The notes below the pieces were generated by a model. It saw only the letters and a program-made list of their open reading frames with translations, was not told the DNA's origin and did no database searches. From Candidatus Fokinia solitaria (GTDB lineage: Bacteria > Pseudomonadota > Alphaproteobacteria > Rickettsiales > Midichloriaceae), in the NCBI RefSeq assembly GCF_003072485.1, contig NZ_CP025989.1, forward strand, positions 210,001 through 242,000: 32,000 nt of DNA, read 5' to 3'. This document shows, one piece after another, positions 1 to 29,277 of this stretch (position 1 is the first letter of the stretch; every line of letters begins with the position of its first letter). The position numbers and the translations under genes are program-made.

Positions 1-332
1 ATGTGAGAATCTTCCAGCATATGCTGCGGTAAAGGCATTTGTACTATTATACCGTTTACTTTAGAATTTTCGTTTACCTCAGATATAGTATCGGATAGTT
101 GCTTCAATGAAGCATCTTCTCCAAATTTCAGTATATGAAATTCTATACCAAGTTCTTTTGCTTTAGCTTTTTTTATTCTGACATAAGTATCGCTGCTTGG
201 ATTGTCACCTACCATTATAGCAGTGATGCAAGGTACGATATTAAGTTTTTTGAGATTACGTATTTCCTCTCTCAATAGCGTAAAAATTTCTTCTGCATAA
301 CTAGTACCATTTATAATTTTCGAAGATTGCAT
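1..332 (-). CDS. folD: FolD, bifunctional methylene-THF dehydrogenase / methenyl-THF cyclohydrolase; N-terminal ~110 codons, gene runs off the left edge
   Basis: Absent from the ORF track because there is no stop in the window. Reverse complement from ATG (332-330) reads MQSSKIINGTSYAEEIFTLLREEIRNLKKLNIVPCITAIMVGDNPSSDTYVRIKKAKAKELGIEF...VNGIIVQMPLPQH. This is the classic FolD N-terminus (VGDxPxSxxYVxxKxK...GI...VQxPLP). Confidence 0.85.
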   Translation of the reverse strand, partial: MQSSKIINGTSYAEEIFTLLREEIRNLKKLNIVPCITAIMVGDNPSSDTYVRIKKAKAKELGIEFHILKFGEDASLKQLSDTISEVNENSKVNGIIVQMPLPQHMLEDSH

Positions 333-562: not shown

Positions 563-3181
563 ATGTATAAGATGTTCAATCGTTTGTTAAATCGCATTAT
601 ACGCGCTACTCTTGGTAAACATGTAGCGATGTTAAAGGCGCGCTTTATAGATCCGCTTATTAGTAATAGCGATAGAGACGATTTCATCCTTAGCTCTTCA
701 TCTTCAAAAAAGTCTTCCGTCAGCTTACCGAAGGAAATAGAAATACCCGTAGTATATGGACGATGTAGAATGCAGTGTCATGTGATTTGGGCTGATAAAG
801 TAGTTAGTATCAGAGATGAGGAGGATAGTAGTGGTTCATCGTACGTTTATGTAAAATCCTTTGCAGTAGGTATATGTAGAGGACCTATCTTTAATATCGG
901 CCACATACTAGTTAACGGACAAAATATTGGTATTCAAAAAAATATAAGAATTAGAGTATACTACGGCACAGAAGACCAAACGGTAGATCCGCTGATAGCG
1001 ATGAGATTGCAGCACCTTTCTACACCTTATAAAGGGCTAGCTTATATTGTTATTCAAAACTTTCCAGCGTCTGACTATAGCCCCTCGATTAAAGTAGAAG
1101 CAGAAATCTCCGGTATATATGACGCAGAATACAGAAGGCGATATGCAATGGATGCTATAAATCTGATCGGTAATGGAGAATTTACATATGATACATTATC
1201 AAACACTCGATACCTTGAATGTCCCGAAGGAGCAGGTACTTGTCAGAGAAGAGATTATTTTCAGATAAATGAATATCATACTGCAGGATCAGCAGATGTA
1301 ATAGTATCTCTTCACGAGCTAAAACGTGCTATGCCAGGCATTAGATGGGTTTGTGTTACAGTATATTGGTTTGCTACTACATATGACATAAAGGATGCAG
1401 ATATAAGACCAGGAGTAGAATTCAGAGGTGATCATACTGCTACTAATCCAGTCACGTGGGTAGTATCTAAGTATACAAGAGATACTGCTGAGCTTATAAA
1501 AAAAGATGCAAATGGTAAATTAATATATACCGGTACAGCAGGTACTATATGCGTTGACAGAATAGTATCAACTTTGAAACAGAGAGGATATAAAGTTATG
1601 CTAAAGCCGATTTTGTTAGTGAATAGAGAAGATAAACCATGGAGTGGAAAGATGGTATGTAATGCATCTGATGTGAGTAATTTTTTTAATAAAGAGGAGG
1701 GTTACAATAACTTTATTACTCATTATGCGAGAGTGCATAGTGGCTTGCTCGACGCCTTTCTTATAGGTTCAGAGCTTGTAAGTCTTACATCATGTCGAGA
1801 TAATGATGGAAATTTTGTCGCAATAAAAGAGCTAAAAAAACTTGCAGATATAGTAAGGGTACTGATACCAGGTAATGTTATGGTGTCGTATGCAGCGCAT
1901 TGGTTAGAATATCATCATACTGATGGTGGATGGTATAATTTAGATCCATTGTGGAGCGACCCAAATATACACTTTATTGGTATAAATAATTACATGCCTC
2001 TGACGGAAGATACAACATCTAGCTATGACATAGAGTATCTTATAAAGTGTTTTGATAGTGGAGAGGGGTACGATTATTTTTACGAATATACAGATTCTGG
2101 TAAAAAAAAGCGTCCTCTTGCGGAAAAATACGCGTGGAAGAATATTGAATGGTGGTGGAGTAATTTGCATTATAATCCCGATGGCGCTGTAACTTCGTGG
2201 ATTCCGGAAAGTAAGAAAATTTGGTTTACGGAATATGGTTTTCCATCGGTGCATTTAGCTACCAACAAGCCAAGTGCATTTTTGCCTTCTGATGAGACTT
2301 CATCTCTTCCAATACACTCTAACGGTAAGTTGGATTTCCGAATGCAAAAAGTTGCTATTTGCGCAATGGAAAAAAGATGGCAGGATTCGAAATGCGTTCA
2401 ACGGAAGTTTTTACAATCCTGGGATGCTAGGCCTTATCCTACTTGGCCTGAGAGGCTTGATGCGTGGAATGATACTGAGATGTGGGAGAAAGGGCATGAT
2501 GTGCAAGGAAAGTTCGATACGTGTTATCTTGCTATAATTATTGAAGATTTGTGTGAGAGAGCGCAGATACCTAAGGACAAAGTAGTAACTTCCGAACTCA
2601 TCGACAAAACAGATGGATTTTTCATCTTACAGAATTCGACGTGCGAAGAGATAATTCAGCAATTGAAGGAAATATTTTTATTCGATATCGTCGAAGATGA
2701 CGGTAAGATACACTTTATTTCTCGTAAAAATGGGAAAAAAGTACCAATACCAGTAGAGCATATTTTACGAGGTGGAGGTAGTTTTAAAGCATCTAAGATA
2801 TGTGAATTTAATGAGATACAGAGGTATGCAATTTCGTTTATTAATACTACATTTACATATGATAAAGACATCATGCAGTATAACAGCGAAAGTAAGACAA
2901 GATCTTTAAGTCTCTTATATGAAGCGAATCTTGTGATAAATCGTGTATGTGGAAAACATCTATTAAAAAAGATAGTAGAGAATTCATTTGCGTACTTAAG
3001 GCAGTATGAGATTTGTATGGGGTTATCACTACATATTATGCCATCCGATATACTGATTGTGAAGATTGGCGGAGGTGAGGTATCACTGAGAGTTATTATG
3101 GCAGTAAGGTATGAACATCACTTATATCTGTTTTGTTATGAAGAAAATATTGTTAAGAATCTTCCCTTTGATGAAGAATAA
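563..3181 (+). CDS. Gene-transfer-agent ORFg15-type protein (GTA TIM-barrel-like glycoside-hydrolase domain plus phage-tail-like domain), shortened version
   Basis: 872-aa ORF. Motif series I recognise from RcGTA g15-type proteins: PVVYGRCR..VIWA, RVYYGTEDQTVDPLI, YKGLAYIVIQNFP, INLIGNGEFTYDT, IRPGVEF, FLIGSELVSLT, SYAAHWLEYHH, LDPLWSDPNIHFIGINNYMPL, WWWSNLHYNP, IWFTEYGFPSV, WDARPYPTWP..WEKGH. A tail-protein-like stretch follows (DGFFILQNSTCEEIIQQLKEIFLFDIVEDDGKIHFISR). An in-frame stop at 521-523 prevents a longer N-terminus. Confidence 0.8.
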   Translation: MYKMFNRLLNRIIRATLGKHVAMLKARFIDPLISNSDRDDFILSSSSSKKSSVSLPKEIEIPVVYGRCRMQCHVIWADKVVSIRDEEDSSGSSYVYVKSFAVGICRGPIFNIGHILVNGQNIGIQKNIRIRVYYGTEDQTVDPLIAMRLQHLSTPYKGLAYIVIQNFPASDYSPSIKVEAEISGIYDAEYRRRYAMDAINLIGNGEFTYDTLSNTRYLECPEGAGTCQRRDYFQINEYHTAGSADVIVSLHELKRAMPGIRWVCVTVYWFATTYDIKDADIRPGVEFRGDHTATNPVTWVVSKYTRDTAELIKKDANGKLIYTGTAGTICVDRIVSTLKQRGYKVMLKPILLVNREDKPWSGKMVCNASDVSNFFNKEEGYNNFITHYARVHSGLLDAFLIGSELVSLTSCRDNDGNFVAIKELKKLADIVRVLIPGNVMVSYAAHWLEYHHTDGGWYNLDPLWSDPNIHFIGINNYMPLTEDTTSSYDIEYLIKCFDSGEGYDYFYEYTDSGKKKRPLAEKYAWKNIEWWWSNLHYNPDGAVTSWIPESKKIWFTEYGFPSVHLATNKPSAFLPSDETSSLPIHSNGKLDFRMQKVAICAMEKRWQDSKCVQRKFLQSWDARPYPTWPERLDAWNDTEMWEKGHDVQGKFDTCYLAIIIEDLCERAQIPKDKVVTSELIDKTDGFFILQNSTCEEIIQQLKEIFLFDIVEDDGKIHFISRKNGKKVPIPVEHILRGGGSFKASKICEFNEIQRYAISFINTTFTYDKDIMQYNSESKTRSLSLLYEANLVINRVCGKHLLKKIVENSFAYLRQYEICMGLSLHIMPSDILIVKIGGGEVSLRVIMAVRYEHHLYLFCYEENIVKNLPFDEE

Positions 3182-3193
3182 TACTTCTTCATC
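3170..3193 (+). terminator. Weak hairpin spanning the stop codon of the g15-like gene (possible leaky terminator or attenuator)
   Basis: GATGAAGAA (3170-3178) / loop TAATAC / TTCTTCATC (3185-3193): a perfect 9-bp stem followed by TTATT. The stem is AT-rich and the U-tract is short, so function is uncertain. Confidence 0.3.
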
Positions 3194-3282
3194 TTATTGG
3201 AAAAAGAAATATTCTGAATTATATATTTTAATCATATAAATATTATGTACAATCTTGATATACAAAGTGAAGTGCAGTTTGG

Positions 3283-6200
3283 ATGAAGTGCTATACGATA
3301 GCGTTTGTTATAGTACTGATTTTGCTATCGAGTGCAGTGCGTTGTGCGTATGCAGAGAATATTAATAAAGCACAAAGAAGCTGCGGAGATTTTAATGGAA
3401 TATACTTTGGTAACTGTAATAGCGATATATTGCCTCTTCATCTTCGTCGATTGACAGGTGGTACGATAGAGGTTACTTCTCCTGATCCGTTTGATGCTTC
3501 GTATCAATTATTGATTTACGAATGCGTTTCGTATAAATCGCCAATATCTCCTACTAAATGCGGCTTCGATGCTCTAAGAAGTAGGAAGACGATTACATTC
3601 AGCCCGTCTCAAGTAAATGATATTAGATCATATTCCGGAGGTTCATTATGTAAAAGTGGTATTTATTACAAAAAAGCAGGAGGTTTGGTTGCTTGTTTGT
3701 ACTCGTATCCTACAGATGGTTTTGATAGCTCTACATTAACATCAGATCAATCTGATGTGTACACTATATTACAGTCTTTCTCGCAAGTATGTGATGCTTC
3801 TACCCCGCTTGGATGTGTGTGTGGAATAGTAGAAGATCATTACCTTCAATTGCACAGTGTATTTCGCACAAAAAATGTAATTGGATGCGTACCAATGATC
3901 ATTCTTCCTCCACCTCCGACTTTTAATCAGATTCTTACTCCTCCAGTAACAATTTTCATTCCAGGACAATCGCCAAATAGTACTTTTGATATGCCTACAG
4001 TACAAGTCCAGTCTTCTCCTGCAAATTCAAATTCTTCTGGCTCAACGATAACATTGCAATATTCTTTCAGCGCAAAAACTCAAACTTGTCAATCTCTACC
4101 ATCTATAATGGGCTCATTTTGTCCATCTATTTCTAGTGATGGTAGCGAAATATGCGTTACTCAGAATTTCTCCAATGGTTGGCCTTCAAATTCGCTAGGT
4201 TGTATACCGCGTCCTAGTATCAGCCAAAGTTCGAACATAGTAATTATACCATACTATGATTATAGCAATACCACTGCGCAGTCAGTTGGAGTTGCGATAC
4301 TACAATCTACAAATGGTCCGATTACGCCAATTTCTGGATTAGTACCAATAGGGTATGATAGTAATGGCGATGTATTATCTCTTGATTCGAATTATAATTT
4401 AGTTGCTACGCCAACCGATAGTACGCAATCTCAGCCTGCAAAATGTAGTCTTGGGACAAATCTTAATCCAAAATTTCCTCTTCCAGCATGTACATTATCC
4501 AGCGGCTATAAGGTATATGGCGCAACTCTTCTTGAAAGTGACAGTGCATCGTCTACAAATAATATAACGGAGTATGTTATTGCTTCTAAGCAGTATGATG
4601 CTGTTAAAACGACGACCGTGTATGAGAAGAAAGGTACTCCTACTATAAAACGATACTATAGTTATACTCAACCTATCGTAGCATTTGAGAATTATGCAAA
4701 TGAGATAGCTACTAACATTTATAATCTGAACATTAAAGCGTTGATTTTAAGTAGTAATGCACAACAGCAGTATATATATCTTACTTCATCAGATGGCGAG
4801 TGTGGTAGAAATTGCGAAATATTTGATACTTTTGACGATAGCAAAGCATCTGCGAAGATCTCAGCATTTGAGTCTAAGGTACAAACGGCGTTAAGCGAAA
4901 TAAAACCAAAAGTAGTGTTTTATGCACAAGAGATAAAACTTGATATAAAAAATAATCCTCAAATCATTACGAGTTCTGAAGTGGAAAAACTCACAAAACT
5001 CTTAGATTCTACAGATCGTGCGAAAGCTAAGGATAATTTTAATAAAGTGAAAAATATCTTAGAAAGTAAGATGTGTCCGCCTAGACATTGTTGGAATTGT
5101 TCATCTTGGAAAGTTGATAACACGGCATCTGATGCGATACCATTTTACATACCTGGTGGCTGGATGAGTAGAAGAGCGGAATATTGCTATTGTGGAGATG
5201 GAAAGAATGAATGTCCTATGGTTGATAACCAAGAGTTACTTGCTCTTGCACAAAGTAATCAGAGTGGAATCGAAAATTTAGAAAGTGAATACAAGCATGA
5301 TAAGAGTAATGCGCAAAATAAAATGATGGAAAATATTTCATCGGATGCGCAGGCGATAGTATCAGAGGATAACTATTGTTCTTGCGCGTTGTGTATGAGA
5401 AATACTACTCAAGAGAAGGCAGATCTGCAAAGTCTTTATAATAAGTACGAGCAACATCTACCTTCGATAAGTGAAATACGTTCTTATTTCAATAAGAATC
5501 AAGGAAATTCTGAAGTGAGTGCGCAAATCTTCATTGATAGAGCTGCTTGTCCAGGTCTTTATAACGGTCCTAATGATCGACATACAAGCATTCCGGATAA
5601 AATGTGCATAATGAGTTCCGGTAATGGATGGGATTTTATATCAGGGAATAATTCGCAAAGTGATGCGGCAAATACTGTTGCATTATTACCTCCTCAGCCT
5701 GTATGTGTCAGTCTTCCGCAGCAATGTACGGTGCCAAGTACAGTTGCAAACGCTACAATACAAAAAGTTATGCCGTTTCCAGTAGAGTTTTATAATGCGG
5801 ATGATCAGCAAGTGAGTGTTGCACAGTTAAAACAAACATCTACATCTTCTTCCAGTAGTGAATCCTCTACTAGTACGACAACACTCCCTTTAAGTGTCAA
5901 TGTAAATACGATGGTTGGTGTTCAGTGTAGCGATGGATATAGTGCAGCGCCTGGTGCTGCTACTTACAGTTTGATTTTACCACCTTTACCTTGCAATAAC
6001 GATACAGCAAGTGCGTCTACTAGTACCACTCAAACAGCGTCATCCACTACAGGCACCGCAACAGATGCTACAACAAGTAGTAATACGATAATAAATGCAT
6101 CATCCATTACCATTCAAACAACAAGTCCTACATCTTCATCAGATATGACAAGTAGTATTACTGTTACAAATACGTCTTCTACTACGTCGACTCTCCCGAT

Positions 6201-8826
6201 CCTTATGCAACAAACTTGTGCTGTGACGGCAGGCTATATAAATGATACCACTGTTGTTCTCACAGCAAATCAAGGCTGCACTTTTTTCCCTAGTAACAAT
6301 GGGGAAGTAACAACGATATACTACTACACAGATTCAACAGGTCAATGTGATACTTGTAGCAGTACCACACCAACTATAAGAGTGGCGTTTTATAGTGATT
6401 TAGTTGTAACTAGTAGTTGCACTGATAGCGGTAGAACATATTATGTTGATATAGCGCCTATCTCTTCGATATATTATAACAATTACGTTTTAGGATTAGC
6501 GTTGCAGCCTCTACCACAGGTCAATATAGTAGACGGTACTGTAATCTTTGCTGGTGGTACTTCATCGCTCTTCTATTCTACATCTTATTCAAGTGTTGTA
6601 GATCAAATCCGAAACAATATGGATCAGTATGGCAATACGTATCAATACGTATTGCCTTGTGATTCGCAGGGGATACTGCCTGGTTACTTTATGCTGTCTT
6701 CTGATTCATATCTTCAGGTGGAAATATCTCAGAGTTTTCAGAATCAGATAACGCAGTATGCTACAAGTAATGCTGGTACTCCACCTTCAGGAGAGCTTAC
6801 TTTTACGTTGTATGGTACAGTAGCAGATACAAATATTGCCAATCTCTCGTCATATATACCTGCTTGGGTAGCAGATCCTACTTGGCCTGCACTTACGGTA
6901 AGCAGCAGTGGTGATCAAATCAGTTCATCTCTTACTGTATCTTCTCCTATCAGTCAAGAAGCTATACCATCTTCTCCAATTCCTCTTATTATGCAGTCTA
7001 CTTGTAACATGACTCAGAATCGCGAGACAATTTCTGTACAAAATTGCGGAGCGTTTCTCAGTAATTCAAATGATTCAAGTACTATTATCTTCGAATATGT
7101 CAATTTCTCGCAAATAGATGGCACCGTACCTGAACTGCGTATAGGGGATAATAATACTGGCACTAATAGTATGCTATCCTTAGTTAATGATACCTCTTTC
7201 TCAGTCTCTGCTCTAAACAATGTAAATGATAGTAACACTACGGTAGCATTTTTATCAGAGTCATTCACTTGGAATGGAAATTCTTACGCTATTGTAATGG
7301 TACCGAGTGCTAGATTTACATTAAAAGAAATAACTTCAACTTCAGCAATATTTGGTGGAGGAGTTTCTGTTGGTGTTATGAATGAAGATGGATATATATA
7401 TGCTACGTATTCTCCACTCAATGCTTGTTTTAGTGATGATTCTGGATGTTTACCGTTCATAGCTCTTTGCGATGGTGTACCATGTGTGACGTTTTCTTCT
7501 GATACTTATTTAGCAATAGAAATGCCGTTAAGTCTTACAAGTAGTTTAGAGAATCAAGATTATACTGGTTCTGGCTCGGTTACCTTTAGTTTGTATGGCG
7601 CTATTAATAGTACTAATATTCCAAATCTTTCATCAATATTACTAGGTAAAGCGAGTAATCTTCCAACACCTACATCTACCACTACTCAAATAAGTACAGC
7701 AGCACAGACATCATCTACTGCTGCAGCTCCTCCGCTTATTATGGAATCTACATGTAATAATGATACAACTCCGTTTGATTATATTGATGGTTATTTTAAC
7801 TTTGGTCAAAGTTGGACAGCGTTTTTCAGTGAGATTGGAGGTATTACCGGTGTAAATATTGATTACTTACCTCCAACATATACTGGTGATTCGATGCCAA
7901 TGCTTACTCTACTTGCTAATGGTACGGTTTTTACTAATTGCAGTGGACAGGTAATTGGTTCGGGTGCTGCAGTCTTTTTGTCTAAGTCATTTTGTTTTGG
8001 AGGAAGTTGTGGATACTACATCATTATGGTACCTAATACTAATATTGTACAAACGAGTACTACATCAAATTCGGCAATATTTACAGGCACAGTTTCTATA
8101 GGTATAGTATCGTATAGTACTTTCTTAGATGGACGTACTATCAACACTTGCGCAACTGATAACACTTTATTCAATAGTTGCGATACGCTTGGATCTTCGT
8201 GCTCGCCATTAACGCCATGCTATAATGGTGGTCCGTATGTAACGTTATCTTCTGACGCGTACTTTCAAGTAGAGATGCCATTAGGTTTAGTTGAAAGCTT
8301 GAATACGTCTACGTCGTCTAGCACTATAAGTCCTTCAGGTACAACTATATTTAGTTTATATGGTACGATAAATACCAATATTCCGAATCTTGCCTCGATA
8401 CTACTTGGTACTGTCAGTAATGCTTCATCAGTAATGTCCAGTACCACTACATCGACACCAGCGTCCAGTACTACTACATCAACGGCGAGTACTACTACAT
8501 CAACGGCGAGTACTACTCAAGCATCAACATCCAATACCGGAAAATGCGATAGTAGTACTGCCGCAGAAAATGCAAAGCGTGAAGGAGCAGTGAAAGAGTT
8601 TCAAGAGCTTGTATCAAAAGCTAAATCAGAAGGGAGAAATGTCGTTATAAGTGATATAGAAAATACACAATATTTAAAGAATTTCAAAAATTATATAAAA
8701 TGTACAGGCGCTGAAATGAAATGCATTGGAGGTATGTTTTATAGTCAAGATGTATGCGTAAAGACCAGCGATCTTCCTACTAATGATTTTTGCATTGCGC
8801 ATACAGTACCGAGTAGTACAGATTAA
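3283..8826 (+). CDS. Giant secreted/surface protein of unrecognised family, rich in Cys and Ser/Thr (1847 aa)
   Basis: Single uninterrupted ORF. Sec-type signal peptide MKCYTIAFVIVLILLSSAVRCAYA/EN. Dozens of Cys spread over the whole length. Pure Ser/Thr tracts and many N-x-S/T triplets. Lys/Glu-rich central segment. Three tandem ~255-aa modules in the C-terminal half. No TM anchor, lipobox, LPXTG, RTX repeats or C-terminal beta-barrel signature seen. Confidence 0.85.
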   Translation: MKCYTIAFVIVLILLSSAVRCAYAENINKAQRSCGDFNGIYFGNCNSDILPLHLRRLTGGTIEVTSPDPFDASYQLLIYECVSYKSPISPTKCGFDALRSRKTITFSPSQVNDIRSYSGGSLCKSGIYYKKAGGLVACLYSYPTDGFDSSTLTSDQSDVYTILQSFSQVCDASTPLGCVCGIVEDHYLQLHSVFRTKNVIGCVPMIILPPPPTFNQILTPPVTIFIPGQSPNSTFDMPTVQVQSSPANSNSSGSTITLQYSFSAKTQTCQSLPSIMGSFCPSISSDGSEICVTQNFSNGWPSNSLGCIPRPSISQSSNIVIIPYYDYSNTTAQSVGVAILQSTNGPITPISGLVPIGYDSNGDVLSLDSNYNLVATPTDSTQSQPAKCSLGTNLNPKFPLPACTLSSGYKVYGATLLESDSASSTNNITEYVIASKQYDAVKTTTVYEKKGTPTIKRYYSYTQPIVAFENYANEIATNIYNLNIKALILSSNAQQQYIYLTSSDGECGRNCEIFDTFDDSKASAKISAFESKVQTALSEIKPKVVFYAQEIKLDIKNNPQIITSSEVEKLTKLLDSTDRAKAKDNFNKVKNILESKMCPPRHCWNCSSWKVDNTASDAIPFYIPGGWMSRRAEYCYCGDGKNECPMVDNQELLALAQSNQSGIENLESEYKHDKSNAQNKMMENISSDAQAIVSEDNYCSCALCMRNTTQEKADLQSLYNKYEQHLPSISEIRSYFNKNQGNSEVSAQIFIDRAACPGLYNGPNDRHTSIPDKMCIMSSGNGWDFISGNNSQSDAANTVALLPPQPVCVSLPQQCTVPSTVANATIQKVMPFPVEFYNADDQQVSVAQLKQTSTSSSSSESSTSTTTLPLSVNVNTMVGVQCSDGYSAAPGAATYSLILPPLPCNNDTASASTSTTQTASSTTGTATDATTSSNTIINASSITIQTTSPTSSSDMTSSITVTNTSSTTSTLPILMQQTCAVTAGYINDTTVVLTANQGCTFFPSNNGEVTTIYYYTDSTGQCDTCSSTTPTIRVAFYSDLVVTSSCTDSGRTYYVDIAPISSIYYNNYVLGLALQPLPQVNIVDGTVIFAGGTSSLFYSTSYSSVVDQIRNNMDQYGNTYQYVLPCDSQGILPGYFMLSSDSYLQVEISQSFQNQITQYATSNAGTPPSGELTFTLYGTVADTNIANLSSYIPAWVADPTWPALTVSSSGDQISSSLTVSSPISQEAIPSSPIPLIMQSTCNMTQNRETISVQNCGAFLSNSNDSSTIIFEYVNFSQIDGTVPELRIGDNNTGTNSMLSLVNDTSFSVSALNNVNDSNTTVAFLSESFTWNGNSYAIVMVPSARFTLKEITSTSAIFGGGVSVGVMNEDGYIYATYSPLNACFSDDSGCLPFIALCDGVPCVTFSSDTYLAIEMPLSLTSSLENQDYTGSGSVTFSLYGAINSTNIPNLSSILLGKASNLPTPTSTTTQISTAAQTSSTAAAPPLIMESTCNNDTTPFDYIDGYFNFGQSWTAFFSEIGGITGVNIDYLPPTYTGDSMPMLTLLANGTVFTNCSGQVIGSGAAVFLSKSFCFGGSCGYYIIMVPNTNIVQTSTTSNSAIFTGTVSIGIVSYSTFLDGRTINTCATDNTLFNSCDTLGSSCSPLTPCYNGGPYVTLSSDAYFQVEMPLGLVESLNTSTSSSTISPSGTTIFSLYGTINTNIPNLASILLGTVSNASSVMSSTTTSTPASSTTTSTASTTTSTASTTQASTSNTGKCDSSTAAENAKREGAVKEFQELVSKAKSEGRNVVISDIENTQYLKNFKNYIKCTGAEMKCIGGMFYSQDVCVKTSDLPTNDFCIAHTVPSSTD
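6196..8409 (+). repeat. Three diverged tandem protein modules (~250-262 aa each) inside the giant gene
   Basis: Each module opens with P(I/L)(L/I)M(Q/E)(Q/S)TC (nt 6196, 6982, 7732). Each closes with (T/S)F(T/S)LYG(T/A)..NI(A/P)NL(S/A)S (around nt 6796, 7579, 8344). Shared internal blocks: SSD(S/T/A)Y(L/F)(Q/A)(V/I)E(I/M), and AFLSESF..YAIVMVP..TSAIFGGGVSVG versus VFLSKSF..YYIIMVP..NSAIFTGTVSIG. Similarity is at protein level; DNA is only moderately similar. Confidence 0.8.
8440..8518 (+). repeat. In-frame 21-nt tandem repeat encoding STTTSTA
   Basis: AGTACTACTACATCAACGGCG occurs exactly twice (8467-8487, 8488-8508). It is flanked by a degenerate 27-nt copy (8440-8466) and a partial copy (8509-~8518). 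Confidence 0.85.
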
Positions 8827-10383: not shown

Positions 10384-13300
10384 TCAAAATATTTTATCTC
10401 TGAAATTAAAAGTAAATTTAGGTCGATAATCTTTTCTGTGTATGACTGTAGTTATTGGAAGAAGAAGTATATCTATGAAAGTTTTAAGCATCATCTTTCC
10501 TTTAAATTCTATCTCATTTCTCTGTATATTAGCGTTTCCTTCTCCAATGATTGTGAACATATCACTTTCTATATTGCATCCGATCAAAGATATCTCATTC
10601 GCATTCAGTGCAGTAATATAGCACTTACTGTTCTGTATCCCAATTTGCTGCTGCATGGTGATAATCTTAACAATATTTATCATGCTAGGATATAAAGATA
10701 AAACGCGCAAAGCTGTATTTATCAATTTATTGTTATGGATATCGAGATTCGACACCTGTAGTACATTTTCATCTATGTATTGACTTTGTCCAATTGTTTT
10801 AAAATTTACATCAAGTATCACGTTACCTTTTTTAAATTGTTTAAGGCTAGGAACTTTTTTCACCAATGATGTAACATTTTGTAGACGGATTGATAATTTA
10901 TCATTTGCATAAGCAATTTCGTAACGTCCGGTATTGCCAGTGCTGTTTGTGAGACATGTAAATTTTGTATCTTTGTCATTATTGCCGCGAATGTAGCGCA
11001 GCATAGTATTGTAAAGTTCGATCCTTTCGCCAAGTAATATATTCTCTATATCAAGTAATACTGACATGGTGCGATTGTCTTTTTTACTGCTACGTAAGTT
11101 TAAAAGATCTGTAATAGTCAATCCTGAGAGATTAAGAGTGTTCTGTTTGACATCAATAGATATATTATCCTTACTCTTCTTTATTATCGTTTTTTCTTCC
11201 TTTGAAGTAGCATATGCGGGAGTGATGACAAAGATTTTCTCATCATCTTTATCTTCGATAGCGATGGTGCCATCATACGAAATTGCAGAACTATTTACTA
11301 AGAATTTATAAATACCGTTTAAATTATGCGTTACAATGCTAACATTAGCGATATTTACTGGATTATTGCTTCTATATATCGAAGCGTATTGGCATTTTAT
11401 ACTAGCTGATTTAAGTGCTATTTGATCGTCTATGCTTAGCGCAATTAAAGTGTTGAGTTTATTTCGTGGTACAATTTTTACGTCTTCAAAATACACTGGA
11501 CTATAAATCGACGAAAGAACGACAATTTCGTTCATGCCATTCGATTTTGTGAGTGGCATTTGCTTTACTGCTAGATCTTTTTTCTTAGCGAGTGCTTGTA
11601 CTTTTTCTTTGTATTCGGAAAAGCCAATATTGTTGTTCTTTCTTATTTTTTTTGCGTTTATCTCATAGTTAAGGAAAGCTTGATGTACGTCTTTCGCATT
11701 ACGAAATTCACCATACGCTTGAATGACATTTTCATGCCAAGAAAGTAGTACATTATCGAATTTAACGTTTAATCCTAATAACTGACGTATTTGGTGCGTA
11801 TACGAGGTCTCTTTTAACGATACATTATTTGCGTGTCCGTTTATTTTAAAAACAGGATTGTTGTCTTTTTTAAAAAGATCAAATTTTAGATTCATTAGAA
11901 ATGTTCCTCTCGTATTTTGCACATCAAAGTTATCGTCGATTATATCGATAATGCGTTCTACGGATTTTTGAGTGAAAAATGTCTTTATGACGTCTAAGTA
12001 CGAAATTATTTTACCTTCGGTGTAATACGTAATATCAGCAAAGTTATTGTCGGTACCGAACGTGATATCAGCTTGTCCACTTGATATATATAGCGGATTG
12101 CTTTTTGGCAATTTATGTTTCTCCAGTATTTTAGAGAAATCTGCATATGCGTTTTTAGCGTCTAAATGCACATTTGTTTCTTTATTGGAAAATTCTCCGC
12201 TGACAGCTACATTTTTTCCAAAGATTACTGGAAATTGTAGTGATAGTGGAGCGAATTTGGAATTAAGCGTATTTGCTTTCCACGAGAAATGCTTTACTTC
12301 ATCTTCTGCATATAAAAGTGTAAGTTCACTACCTTCTACTATGCTATCGAAAAATACATTTTCTTGTATAAATTTCTTTGTATTTTTCCCAAATTTCTGA
12401 GGCCAGTATGTGAAAAAGTCATTTCTTGAGATTGGAGAAGTATTTTTTATGGAGCAATTCAGTTGTGGTATTTTATGTTGATATTGTAAATTAAATTTAG
12501 CTGTTACTCCATTATCTGTAGAGATATTGCCATTATTGATATTGAGAGTCTTATTTTGTACGTCGAAATAACCGTGACCAGTAATGATGTCCAACGTTTG
12601 GCTATTATGAGAGAGGATATTTTTTATATATGCGTCGTGAAAATTAAATGATATTTCGAAAAGATGAAGAGCATTTTGATTGATGGAAATTTTGTACTCA
12701 GTTTCGAGAGGAGTGTGTTCTTTGGATAGCGCATATTTTGCGAGAGTGACGTTTATTGCGCTACTTACGTATTTACTGTTATTAAGTTGAGGTTCAATAA
12801 GCGCATTAAGTTTTGCTACATATTGCTGGGCATTATTAATAACTGTACCAACACTCTCTATATCGTATTTTTGATTACTTTTCTTTATGCTTAAAATGAA
12901 TTTTTCGAGGAATACTTGCTTATTTGTCTCGTACTGTAAGGTGATATTTTGCAACTCTATCTTTTGAGGCATTAACTCGAGTGATTTAGAAAGTATTTTG
13001 AAATTACTGTACTTGGAATCAGTAGTTTGTATGTATTGACTCAGTATAGGGAGAGTTTCCTTATCAAGCTTGCAGTCTGACATTGATATGGAATCAATCT
13101 TAAAAAATGACCATGGTAAAAGTGAGAGCGATACTTTTGTATTTGGCAATGTGTATTGAAAATGTGAAGTCGCTTTATCTGCGATAAAAGCAGCGCATTG
13201 AACTTCAACAGAAAATGGTAGATTTTTAAATCTAAGATCTACGTTTTGCAGTATTAGTTCTTTATCATGAGGTAACTTTGTGTATTTTGTTACAATGCTT

Positions 13301-13437
13301 TGTATTAATAGTTTTTGATGCTGTGTAAGTCGAATGTGTAGTAATGTGAGAAGCGATGTGAAAAGTACCATTAATAGCAATGCTATTGCGATACTCTTTA
13401 CTAGAATCCATATGTGATACGCAAAAGTTCTTCTCAT
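10384..13437 (-). CDS. Large inner-membrane-anchored AsmA-family (YhdP/DUF3971-like) protein
   Basis: 1017 aa with one N-terminal TM helix (WILVKSIAIALLLMVLFTSLLTLL) and a long Asn/Lys-rich, beta-looking body. The assignment rests on architecture and a weak C-terminal resemblance, not on strong motifs. A 12-nt gap to rsmG suggests co-transcription. Confidence 0.45.
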   Translation of the reverse strand: MRRTFAYHIWILVKSIAIALLLMVLFTSLLTLLHIRLTQHQKLLIQSIVTKYTKLPHDKELILQNVDLRFKNLPFSVEVQCAAFIADKATSHFQYTLPNTKVSLSLLPWSFFKIDSISMSDCKLDKETLPILSQYIQTTDSKYSNFKILSKSLELMPQKIELQNITLQYETNKQVFLEKFILSIKKSNQKYDIESVGTVINNAQQYVAKLNALIEPQLNNSKYVSSAINVTLAKYALSKEHTPLETEYKISINQNALHLFEISFNFHDAYIKNILSHNSQTLDIITGHGYFDVQNKTLNINNGNISTDNGVTAKFNLQYQHKIPQLNCSIKNTSPISRNDFFTYWPQKFGKNTKKFIQENVFFDSIVEGSELTLLYAEDEVKHFSWKANTLNSKFAPLSLQFPVIFGKNVAVSGEFSNKETNVHLDAKNAYADFSKILEKHKLPKSNPLYISSGQADITFGTDNNFADITYYTEGKIISYLDVIKTFFTQKSVERIIDIIDDNFDVQNTRGTFLMNLKFDLFKKDNNPVFKINGHANNVSLKETSYTHQIRQLLGLNVKFDNVLLSWHENVIQAYGEFRNAKDVHQAFLNYEINAKKIRKNNNIGFSEYKEKVQALAKKKDLAVKQMPLTKSNGMNEIVVLSSIYSPVYFEDVKIVPRNKLNTLIALSIDDQIALKSASIKCQYASIYRSNNPVNIANVSIVTHNLNGIYKFLVNSSAISYDGTIAIEDKDDEKIFVITPAYATSKEEKTIIKKSKDNISIDVKQNTLNLSGLTITDLLNLRSSKKDNRTMSVLLDIENILLGERIELYNTMLRYIRGNNDKDTKFTCLTNSTGNTGRYEIAYANDKLSIRLQNVTSLVKKVPSLKQFKKGNVILDVNFKTIGQSQYIDENVLQVSNLDIHNNKLINTALRVLSLYPSMINIVKIITMQQQIGIQNSKCYITALNANEISLIGCNIESDMFTIIGEGNANIQRNEIEFKGKMMLKTFIDILLLPITTVIHRKDYRPKFTFNFRDKIF

Positions 13438-28617: not shown

Positions 28618-29277
28618 TTACTTGAGATTGCCTTTCTTATTCGTATCACTACCAATAATGATATAGCTTGTAATTTCATTAACAGCCATACGCAACTCAT
28701 CACTTAAATGAAAGGAGCTGATTAGCTTTGAAGATGTAGCGAGTACATTTTCACCATCATTGTGCGCAGTATATAGAGACATTTTCATCATGTCTTGCAG
28801 TATGTGATATACCGAGACGTTATGCGTTATCACAGTGTCGTCATTCTTTGCAATACCACTTCTCAAGCGTAATGAATACGCGAGAAATCTGTTATACTCT
28901 GTGATACCTTCATCAATTTTTAAGTCAGCAATTTTTTGACATTTTACAATTGCTTTTACCGGTTCATAATTTCTTAATATTAATCCTAATTTATAGTTTT
29001 CATACAGTCCAATGTATGCATCGGTCTTATATTGCATATTTTTCCGCTGTAAATCATCTTCGGATGGATTTTCATACAGCATATCAGTGAAGAGAACAGC
29101 GTCAGCTTTGGCGTCACGCGTCTTCTTATAATCATAGAATTGCTTTACACCTATGAAAACAGCAATACATATGAATCCTAATGAAATCACTATACTGGCA
29201 AGTTTCATCACTCTCTGCCACCTTTCTGATATTTCTTCTGCGAGAATATCATCGAATACATCCAGATTTTTGTTCAC
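28618..29277 (-). CDS. YfgM-like single-pass membrane protein with TPR-like C-terminal domain (Rickettsiales DUF-type)
   Basis: 219 aa. Acidic N-terminus, one TM helix (LASIVISLGFICIAVFIGV), then a helical repeat-like domain. This is the same layout as YfgM/UPF0070-type proteins. No strong motif, so the family call is tentative. Confidence 0.4.
   Translation of the reverse strand: MNKNLDVFDDILAEEISERWQRVMKLASIVISLGFICIAVFIGVKQFYDYKKTRDAKADAVLFTDMLYENPSEDDLQRKNMQYKTDAYIGLYENYKLGLILRNYEPVKAIVKCQKIADLKIDEGITEYNRFLAYSLRLRSGIAKNDDTVITHNVSVYHILQDMMKMSLYTAHNDGENVLATSSKLISSFHLSDELRMAVNEITSYIIIGSDTNKKGNLK

Follow-up and report, generated by a model that had tools for sequence, protein, structure and literature searches.

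A trimmed megatron (g15) homologue in Candidatus Fokinia solitaria, probably a member of a dispersed and reduced gene transfer agent set

The g15 locus and its neighbourhood

The stretch of DNA analysed here (the window) covers 32 kb of the genome of Candidatus Fokinia solitaria. Its translation yields an intact open reading frame (ORF) of 872 aa without internal stops (Table 1), which is a homologue of the large baseplate protein g15, or megatron, of gene transfer agents (GTAs). The Pfam domain GTA_TIM (PF13547) is matched at aa 380-629 with an E-value of 1.6e-53 and 182 bits (cutoff 27), and a profile search of the whole genome places it at 211700-212449 of the contig. The NCBIfam profile NF048004 (GTA_megatron) gives 545 bits (3.7e-163) and aligns aa 15-844 with its positions 23-951 of 1299; the score stays under the equivalog cutoff of 800 bits because the C-terminus is absent and about 350 profile positions are left unmatched. 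PHROG 4271 (tail protein) matches at 1.9e-116, and sequence searches recover the megatron of phage R4C (8gtc_M, 2e-62) as well as the RcGTA g15 chain 6tba_8A (PDB 6TBA/6TEH; HMMER, 1.3e-72), the latter in two colinear stretches. The likeness to RcGTA g15 is therefore colinear across several domains, as in the proteins that NF048004 describes, and the g15-type assignment proposed in a sequence-only reading of the window is borne out.

A GTA megatron gene would be expected beside g12-g13-g14, closing a head-tail cluster; the Fokinia gene instead has folD on one side and a giant ORF on the other. folD, also the neighbour of g15 in the sister genome, does not belong to the GTA set. The giant ORF encodes a signal peptide, 25% Ser + Thr and Cys-rich internal repeats; it has no Pfam, NCBIfam or PHROG match, and no tie to the GTA set was found. 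It adjoins g15 in the sister species only and not in three other genera. The possibility that it stands in for a fibre, or supplies the C-terminus that the megatron lacks, was considered and is unsupported, given the absence of a family match and of proximity to g15 in other genera. The remaining window ORFs with matches (Pfam, NCBIfam) are all housekeeping genes, in agreement with the earlier statement that the window contains no other phage gene. Three further genera of the family likewise have a lone g15 amid housekeeping genes. There are no tRNAs in the 32-kb window, a scan for promoters and terminators was uninformative (14 promoter-like sites versus 15 expected, no terminators), and no integrase, repeat boundary or compositional anomaly was found at the g15 locus.

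Table 1. Features of the g15 locus (window coordinates, shown with two dots) and other GTA genes of F. solitaria (genome coordinates).
Feature	Coordinates	Strand	Evidence or remark
folD, 5' part, divergent upstream neighbour	3..332	-	Pfam THF_DHG_CYH, 1.7e-27
g15/megatron homologue, short form	563..3181	+	Pfam, NCBIfam, PHROG and RcGTA chain matches
N-terminal segment, aa 1-58, basic, helical	563..736	+	AF2 pLDDT < 50 for aa 1-58
Beta-rich region, RcGTA 'adhesin-like' domain, aa ~59-200	737..1162	+	HMMER; strands in model
GTA_TIM/GH113-like TIM-barrel core of peripheral domain, aa 380-629	1700..2449	+	Pfam, Foldseek, invariant columns
Central hub-like (gp27/VgrG-type) domain, aa ~692-843	2636..3091	+	NF048004 alignment, fold matches
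Giant ORF, 1847 aa, downstream of g15	3283..8826	+	Sequence features; no family match
HK97 capsid	2,306-3,385		Beside dnaA
gp6-type adaptor	3,382-3,888		Beside dnaA
Prohead protease	beside dnaA		Two pieces in the F. solitaria record
Large terminase TerL	135,850-137,328		Relative's TerL protein, then PHROG 38
Portal	154,482-155,690	-	Intact gene
g12 distal-tail protein and g13 hub	about 301-303 kb (~301.4-302.8 kb)		~90 kb from g15

Domain organization of the short megatron

Read against the domain map of the RcGTA megatron (PMC7296036), the Fokinia protein is colinear with RcGTA g15 (Rcc01698; 6TBA, 6TEH) through the adhesin-like domain, the TIM barrel of the peripheral domain and the central domain, and both share the motifs G-S/T-E, W-S-E-Y and F-T-E-x-G. 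The adhesin-like region aligns with residues 28-369 of 6tba_8A (HMMER) and includes the N-terminal YGR.R motif named in the sequence-only reading, here YGRCR at aa 65-69. The best structural match of the predicted fold, which had been suggested as a check, is the megatron of roseophage vB_DshS-R4C (8GTC chain M; Foldseek E 1e-38) with the same domain order. Unlike Fokinia g15, that protein belongs to the virion of a replicating siphophage and measures 1447 aa, with extra insertions and an additional C-terminal part.

The differences from RcGTA g15 are concentrated at the two ends. A comparison of 16 homologues indicated that the hydrophobic, glycine-zipper-rich N-terminus of the long forms, including the glycine-rich N-terminus of RcGTA, is not kept in Fokinia, and no N-terminal signal peptide was seen on inspection by eye. 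At the other end, the stop codon follows 29 aa after the central domain, and the fibre-binding domain (residues 985-1304 in RcGTA) is missing. The C-terminal shortening that had been noted, 872 versus 1304 aa, corresponds to the loss of Rcc01698_C (PF23666). This domain is absent from the ORF and from the entire F. solitaria genome, as well as genome-wide from the sister species and several related genera, whereas Rickettsiales homologues of ~1220 aa do carry it.

The phage-tail-like segment is also supported, if not by the Pfam model suggested for it. Of the two models, GTA_TIM matched strongly, while Phage-tail_3 by itself reached 19.4 bits (cutoff 23) and gave no match in the sister-species orthologue. 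The same region nevertheless aligns inside NF048004, up to profile position 951, and inside PHROG 4271, and its model resembles gp27/gp44/VgrG-type hubs (8hqz, 1wru, 3cdd and 7q5p; Foldseek). [quoted passage not shown]

The TIM barrel and its likeness to glycoside hydrolases

A (beta/alpha)8 barrel fold is supported by Foldseek matches to 5ylh, 7dv7, 3civ and 4cd6 (E 1e-8 to 4e-10). These include GH113 beta-mannanases of clan GH-A (AaManA, 3CIV/4CD6; BaMan113A, 7DV7), on which the barrel (aa ~260-630) superposes with a TM-score on target of 0.63-0.71. Pfam GH113 gives the ORF a partial match of 31 bits. The identity with the Fokinia barrel is only 12-15%, and the family profile searched against PDB sequences did not reach the GH113 structures. 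In clan GH-A, including GH113, the catalytic acid/base is a Glu after strand 4 and the nucleophile a Glu after strand 7. Three glutamates are invariant among 30 homologues, namely E404 (nt 1772-1774), E449 (nt 1907-1909) and E557 (nt 2231-2233), together with H451 and H452. As in GH113, glutamates are found at strand ends: in the AF2 model, E449 comes after the strand 440-445 and E557 closes the strand 553-558, which, on the strand numbering derived from the model, may be comparable positions. The function of the megatron TIM barrel has not been established even in RcGTA, and none of these barrels has a known activity (preprint 10.64898/2026.07.19.739414).

GTA genes elsewhere in the genome

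The claim that g15 had been retained alone does not hold at the scale of the genome. A search of its 837,348 bp found further GTA genes at five loci apart from g15: these comprise TerL, portal, protease, HK97 capsid and adaptor for the head and for packaging, along with g12 and g13. TerL was missed by the Pfam model Terminase_6N and came to light only with a relative's protein, after which PHROG 38 confirmed it; one failed Pfam search thus does not prove that a gene is absent. The partners contacted by the central domain of the RcGTA megatron, g13 and g12, are exactly those retained in F. solitaria.

The rest of the tail is less complete. The tail tube, tail chaperone, tape measure and g14 all went undetected, both with Pfam and NCBIfam models and in phmmer searches with cluster proteins from relatives of the same family (clusters of five relatives). 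The tail tube model PF06199 had no match in F. solitaria (G000) or in G185, and the g14 peptidase model TIGR02219 had no credible match in the F. solitaria genome. A 12.5-bit match to TIGR02219 was rejected, and a weak match at G000:759,644-760,138 is a DUF2335 membrane protein and not g14. Consequently, a canonical tail could not be built from the detectable genes. Two small conserved ORFs after g6 (3,912-4,256 and 4,249-4,683) occupy the places expected for g7 and g8 and show no significant similarity to anything. The sequence-only reading had foreseen that a complete head-tail cluster elsewhere without its own g15 would make the gene a relocated cluster member. The other loci do lack a g15 of their own, but together they amount to a scattered and reduced complement that falls short of a complete cluster.

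Conservation and selection

The orthologue of the sister species Fokinia crypta has 870 aa, is 53% identical and occupies the same position between folD and the giant ORF. Homologue searches returned F. crypta and other Rickettsiales as the nearest relatives, and the family is present in 157 of 201 genomes of the order and in 107 of the 128 genera sampled. Between the two Fokinia species, the dN/dS of g15 is ~0.29 overall, lowest in the barrel (~0.18) and ~0.23 in the central domain, values that are rough since dS (~1.0-1.5) is near saturation. The ORF, noted earlier as intact, is thus under purifying selection and has nearly the same length in both species. At the same time, nonsynonymous change in g15 is ~7 times faster than in radA (92.5% identical between the two species), and Fokinia g15 sits on a long branch in a quick IQ-TREE analysis, which together indicate that the constraint is relaxed. 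In some relatives, g15 is pseudogenised or fragmented (G148 with two stops, G208 and G100 in pieces).

Origin and possible function

Taken with the published RcGTA and Rickettsiales work, these observations make it probable that the F. solitaria ORF is a trimmed g15 from a Rickettsiales RcGTA-type set that has been dispersed and reduced; it may still assemble with g12 and g13. Genome rearrangement would have scattered the set over six or more loci, leaving TerL, the portal, protease-capsid-adaptor, g12-g13 and g15. The trimmed megatron would have lost its C-terminal fibre-binding domain and glycine-zipper N-terminus and kept the adhesin-like, peripheral GH113-like TIM-barrel and central hub-like domains. 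By analogy with RcGTA, the central domain may join g13 (hub) and g12 (distal-tail protein), both retained, in a three-fold baseplate-like complex, with the barrel displayed at its periphery as a putative glycan-binding or glycan-cleaving module. Counting against this explanation are the undetected tail genes, the protease in two pieces, the fast evolution of g15 and the report by George et al. that no particles were seen by TEM in other endosymbionts (PMC9254644).

The isolation of g15 in the window had been taken to suggest a new cellular function. Lone placement is the norm in the family and in Rickettsiales, where GTA 'small clusters/singletons' were described by Shakya et al. in 2017 (PMC5721377), and repurposing therefore does not follow from it; in F. 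solitaria, moreover, head, packaging and g12/g13 genes are kept in the same genome. A protein repurposed to act alone, or with g12/g13 only, as a glycan hydrolase or adhesin directed at the envelope or the host is still conceivable, if unlikely. Repurposing is among the possibilities left open by George et al. (PMC9254644), and it would agree with the joint absence of tail tube, tape measure, g14, fibre-binding domain and hydrophobic N-terminus and with the barrel being the most constrained part of g15. Intact TerL, portal, capsid and adaptor genes in a genome of 837 kb would nonetheless be hard to explain if particles were obsolete; the central domain, whose sole known role is baseplate assembly, has been kept, and the protein has no visible signal peptide. 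A related reading, about equally doubtful, is that Fokinia and possibly related short-form lineages carry a tail-tube-less GTA derivative, in which g12-g13-g15 would be docked under the head-neck or form a free envelope-associated glycan-hydrolase complex. The correlated loss of tube, tape measure, g14 and fibre-binding domain would then reflect a role shifted away from DNA delivery inside the Paramecium host.

High amino-acid divergence on a long branch, broken copies in relatives and the loss of two terminal domains could also be read as signs of a decaying relic heading for loss, with a frame that is open only temporarily. We consider this improbable, as a frame of 870-872 aa has stayed open in two species at a dS above 1 and, in F. 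solitaria, a GC content of 35%, with a dN/dS well below 1 and invariant motif residues. Least probable is an unrelated prophage remnant or a recent horizontal gain of a phage tail gene outside the vertical GTA set. Megatron-type proteins do occur in true phages such as R4C, the best fold match, but the locus has none of the usual marks of insertion (integrase, tRNA, repeat boundary, anomalous composition), synteny is kept with F. crypta, and both the nearest relatives and the broad distribution of the family point to the Rickettsiales.

Relation to known systems

Dispersed GTA genes, baseplate genes among them, have already been described in Rickettsiales (George 2022, PMC9254644; Shakya 2017, PMC5721377), and F. 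solitaria does not represent a new kind of system. Rickettsiales keep capsid/portal and distal-tail/hub/megatron genes under purifying selection (PMC9254644), and the published sets show the same retained components, spread over several loci with tail parts missing, and among the tail domains the strongest purifying selection on the megatron TIM barrel. Fokinia is alike in each respect, and no essential difference was found. Added here are a map of the six GTA loci of F. solitaria, the absence of the fibre-binding domain from the megatron across a group of related genera, the conservation in F. crypta of the ~870-aa form and its position, and the three invariant glutamates of the GH113-like barrel. 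The literature already asks why selection maintains GTA head and baseplate genes in the smallest genomes of the Rickettsiales, and these additions could guide the choice of a tractable system in which to study the role of a reduced GTA in an endosymbiont. They also illustrate that a phage-like gene seemingly orphaned in a 32-kb window can belong to a set dispersed over the whole genome.

Identity and Domain Content of the g15 Homologue

The 872-aa ORF is uninterrupted and belongs, as the sequence-only reading had proposed, to the g15 (megatron) family of gene transfer agents (GTAs). It matches NCBIfam NF048004 ("baseplate multidomain protein megatron") with 545 bits, aa 15–844 corresponding to profile positions 23–951 of 1299, and PHROG 4271 ("tail protein") at 1.9e-116. 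Among sequences of solved structures, the RcGTA g15 chain (1304 aa; 6TBA/6TEH) is matched at 1.3e-72 over two colinear segments, and 8GTC_M, the megatron of roseophage R4C, at 2e-62. Of the two Pfam domains expected by that reading, GTA_TIM was found (182 bits, cutoff 27, aa 380–629), together with a partial match to GH113, and Phage-tail_3 stayed under its cutoff (19.4 bits against 23).

The protein was modelled with AlphaFold2 from 30 homologues (mean pLDDT 75.4, pTM 0.69; low-quality prediction limited to aa 1–58 and the final 10 residues), and Foldseek was used to compare the model with known structures. The R4C megatron ranked first (1e-38) and RcGTA g15, the comparison originally suggested, second (3e-14), followed by GH113 beta-mannanases (TM-score on target 0.63–0.71) and, on the C-terminal part, by T5 pb3 and gp27/gp44/VgrG-type hubs. 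Seven residues do not vary across 30 homologues (E404, E449, E557, H451, H452, D621, and R623), and the three glutamate motifs are common to Fokinia g15, RcGTA, and R4C. By analogy, following the clan GH-A rule, we infer that E449 would be the acid/base and E557 the nucleophile; according to a 2026 preprint, no megatron barrel has a known activity.

The RcGTA megatron has five domains, including the peripheral (230–744), central (745–984), and fibre-binding (985–1304) domains (Bárdy et al., PMC7296036). Fokinia g15 aligns with it through the central domain, where the alignment ends; unlike it, Fokinia g15 has no fibre-binding domain. The domain Rcc01698_C (PF23666), located at about aa 980–1075 in Rickettsiales homologues of ~1220 aa, was not found in the forms of ~870–890 aa, so the predicted absence of most of the C-terminal region holds. 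PF23666 is missing genome-wide in both Fokinia species and in eight other relatives (G026, G100, G161, G173, G201, G202, G206, and G209), which indicates that the domain was lost and not moved to a gene of its own. A quick tree places all six short forms together on the same side of one branch (SH-aLRT 88), with a long stem leading to the Fokinia pair; the short forms may derive from one loss. Long forms have a glycine-zipper-rich N-terminus that Fokinia g15 also lacks; the role of this N-terminus is uncertain because the "iris" helices of RcGTA are assigned to the tape measure instead in the 2026 preprint.

A Dispersed Set of GTA Genes

The claim that g15 had been retained alone did not survive a search of the single 837,348-bp contig, in which the window spans G000:C1:210001–242000. 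Head and packaging genes, g12, and g13 were found elsewhere in the genome, and the tail tube, g14 peptidase, tail chaperone, and tape measure were not, even when cluster proteins from five relatives (two belonging to the same family) served as queries. Pfam Terminase_6N had no match in the whole genome; its large terminase was found with the TerL of a relative instead. With the portal and the head module, g15 makes up one dispersed set.

GTA genes in the Ca. Fokinia solitaria genome (G000:C1 unless stated)
Feature	Position	Strand	Remarks
g15 (megatron)	window 563–3181	+	872 aa
Large terminase (TerL)	135,850–137,328		relative's cluster TerL, 2.3e-79; PHROG 38, 2.2e-80
Portal	154,482–155,690	-	whole-genome search; single, flanked by nrdA and secB
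Prohead-protease pieces	837,152–837,346 and 1,901–2,149		whole-genome search
HK97 capsid	2,306–3,385		whole-genome search; beside dnaA
gp6-type adaptor	3,382–3,888		directly after capsid, beside dnaA; followed by two small unassigned ORFs
g12 (DUF2460) and g13 (hub; Gp84_N + BR0599)	about 301.4–302.8 kb		between serS and an OmpA/Pal-like gene

This pattern is of a kind already described, in a genome already analyzed. In Rickettsiales, RcGTA homologues were reported in small clusters only, and "most are singletons" (Shakya et al. 2017, PMC5721377). George et al. (PMC9254644) cite the F. solitaria genome and describe multiple GTA clusters dispersed through the genome with tail parts missing; they report dN/dS values below 1 and count the TIM barrel of the megatron among the tail domains under stronger constraint. 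In our own survey, NF048004 was matched in 157 of 201 genomes and 107 of 128 genera of the order, and g15 is likewise solitary, surrounded by unrelated housekeeping genes, in three more genera of the family. A same-family genome of only about 786 kb (G204) has, in colinear order, genes for portal, protease, capsid, adaptor, and candidate tube as well as g12 and g13 (L050, G204:C1:574,000–592,000), and a long-form g15 lies about 2.7 kb further downstream; a small genome is therefore not in itself enough to explain why the Fokinia set is scattered and trimmed.

In two relatives' GTA clusters, a DUF2335 membrane protein is encoded between g13 and g14/g15 (L039:17708–18211, L050:15184–15669). F. 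solitaria has a homologue beside rpsL (G000:C1:759,644–760,138, minus strand; phmmer 1.5e-8), and the protein may represent an unrecognised GTA-associated gene.

Outside the window, at G000:C1:835,482–837,348 and 1–2,149, two adjacent blocks stand in swapped order compared with the sister genome (L006, L009, L047). One holds dnaA and ~116 initial codons of the ORF after it; the second holds what is left of that ORF, two further genes, and codons 1–66 of the protease. The swap parts dnaA from its own upstream region and cuts the g4 prohead protease, intact in the sister species (135 aa), into two complementary pieces. One breakpoint is the dnaA ATG, i.e., record position 1, which was placed by hand by the authors of the genome (PMC5905368), and ATG-type microhomology is the only feature common to the three junctions. 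The swap is either a real rearrangement or a record artefact.

Selection and Probable Function

The nearest g15 homologue carries the name Ca. Fokinia crypta. In the sister genome (G185, 815,586 bp), the g15 orthologue has 870 aa, and the order folD(-)/g15/giant ORF/radA(-)/~1020-aa ORF is common to both species. By the Nei–Gojobori method, dN/dS between the two is 0.29 for the whole of g15 (53% aa identity), 0.18 for the TIM barrel (64.9%), 0.23 for the central domain (52.3%), and 0.37–0.54 for the N-terminal parts (41.7–49.7%), versus 0.044 for radA (92.5%), all values being rough because dS is about 1.0–1.5, near saturation. These values point to purifying selection, relaxed relative to housekeeping genes and within the range given for Rickettsiales tail genes in PMC9254644.

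It is very probable that g15 belongs to the GTA set of Rickettsiales as one of its dispersed members. The RcGTA central domain contacts the hub and distal-tail proteins (PMC7296036), and exactly these two partners, g13 and g12, are kept in F. solitaria; a baseplate complex is the most economical reading. Through its central domain, g15 would join g12 and g13 in a baseplate-type complex that presents a glycan-directed barrel and forms part of a reduced, dispersed GTA, a structural mechanism that we favor by a modest degree. This complex may be attached to a head filled with DNA, with no tube detectable, or serve another purpose.

The new cellular function proposed earlier would make g15 a repurposed stand-alone enzyme. 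The low dN/dS of the barrel would suit such an enzyme, and George et al. leave repurposing as an open alternative, but head and packaging genes are also kept in this genome, and we regard it as unlikely. The observation behind that proposal was confirmed, and its interpretation is supported only in part, the GTA genes being dispersed across the genome. Decay into a relic would fit the high divergence of g15, its long stem in the tree, and the loss of two terminal domains, but the ORF is intact in both Fokinia species and its dN/dS is well below 1; we consider decay improbable. Least probable is an unrelated prophage remnant: the R4C match is to a phage protein, and the family is found across most genera of the order.

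Genomic Surroundings

Ca. Fokinia solitaria is an endosymbiont of Paramecium (PMC5905368). The neighborhood of g15 is otherwise phage-free, as first described: the rest of the window holds housekeeping genes (folD, radA-like, rsmG, mlaE, lysS, leuS, lpdA-like, lolA, lipB, atpA, acrB, TLC ATP/ADP translocase, and glyA) and three ORFs without a family. Base composition is flat across the window, and no tRNA was found in these 32 kb. A 219-aa ORF without a Pfam match (28618–29277, minus strand) lies between acrB and the translocase gene. The 1017-aa ORF at 10384–13437 (minus strand) has no Pfam, NCBIfam, or PHROG match; its sister-species counterpart has 1020 aa (61% identity, dN/dS about 0.15). 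The giant ORF downstream of g15 (3283–8826, plus strand, 1847 aa), likewise without a match in these three collections, encodes a Cys-rich product with a signal peptide, 25% Ser+Thr, and three to four repeat modules within it. This protein, which has an orthologue of 1593 aa in the sister species (51% identity, dN/dS about 0.35), appears to be secreted or surface-located and to evolve rapidly.
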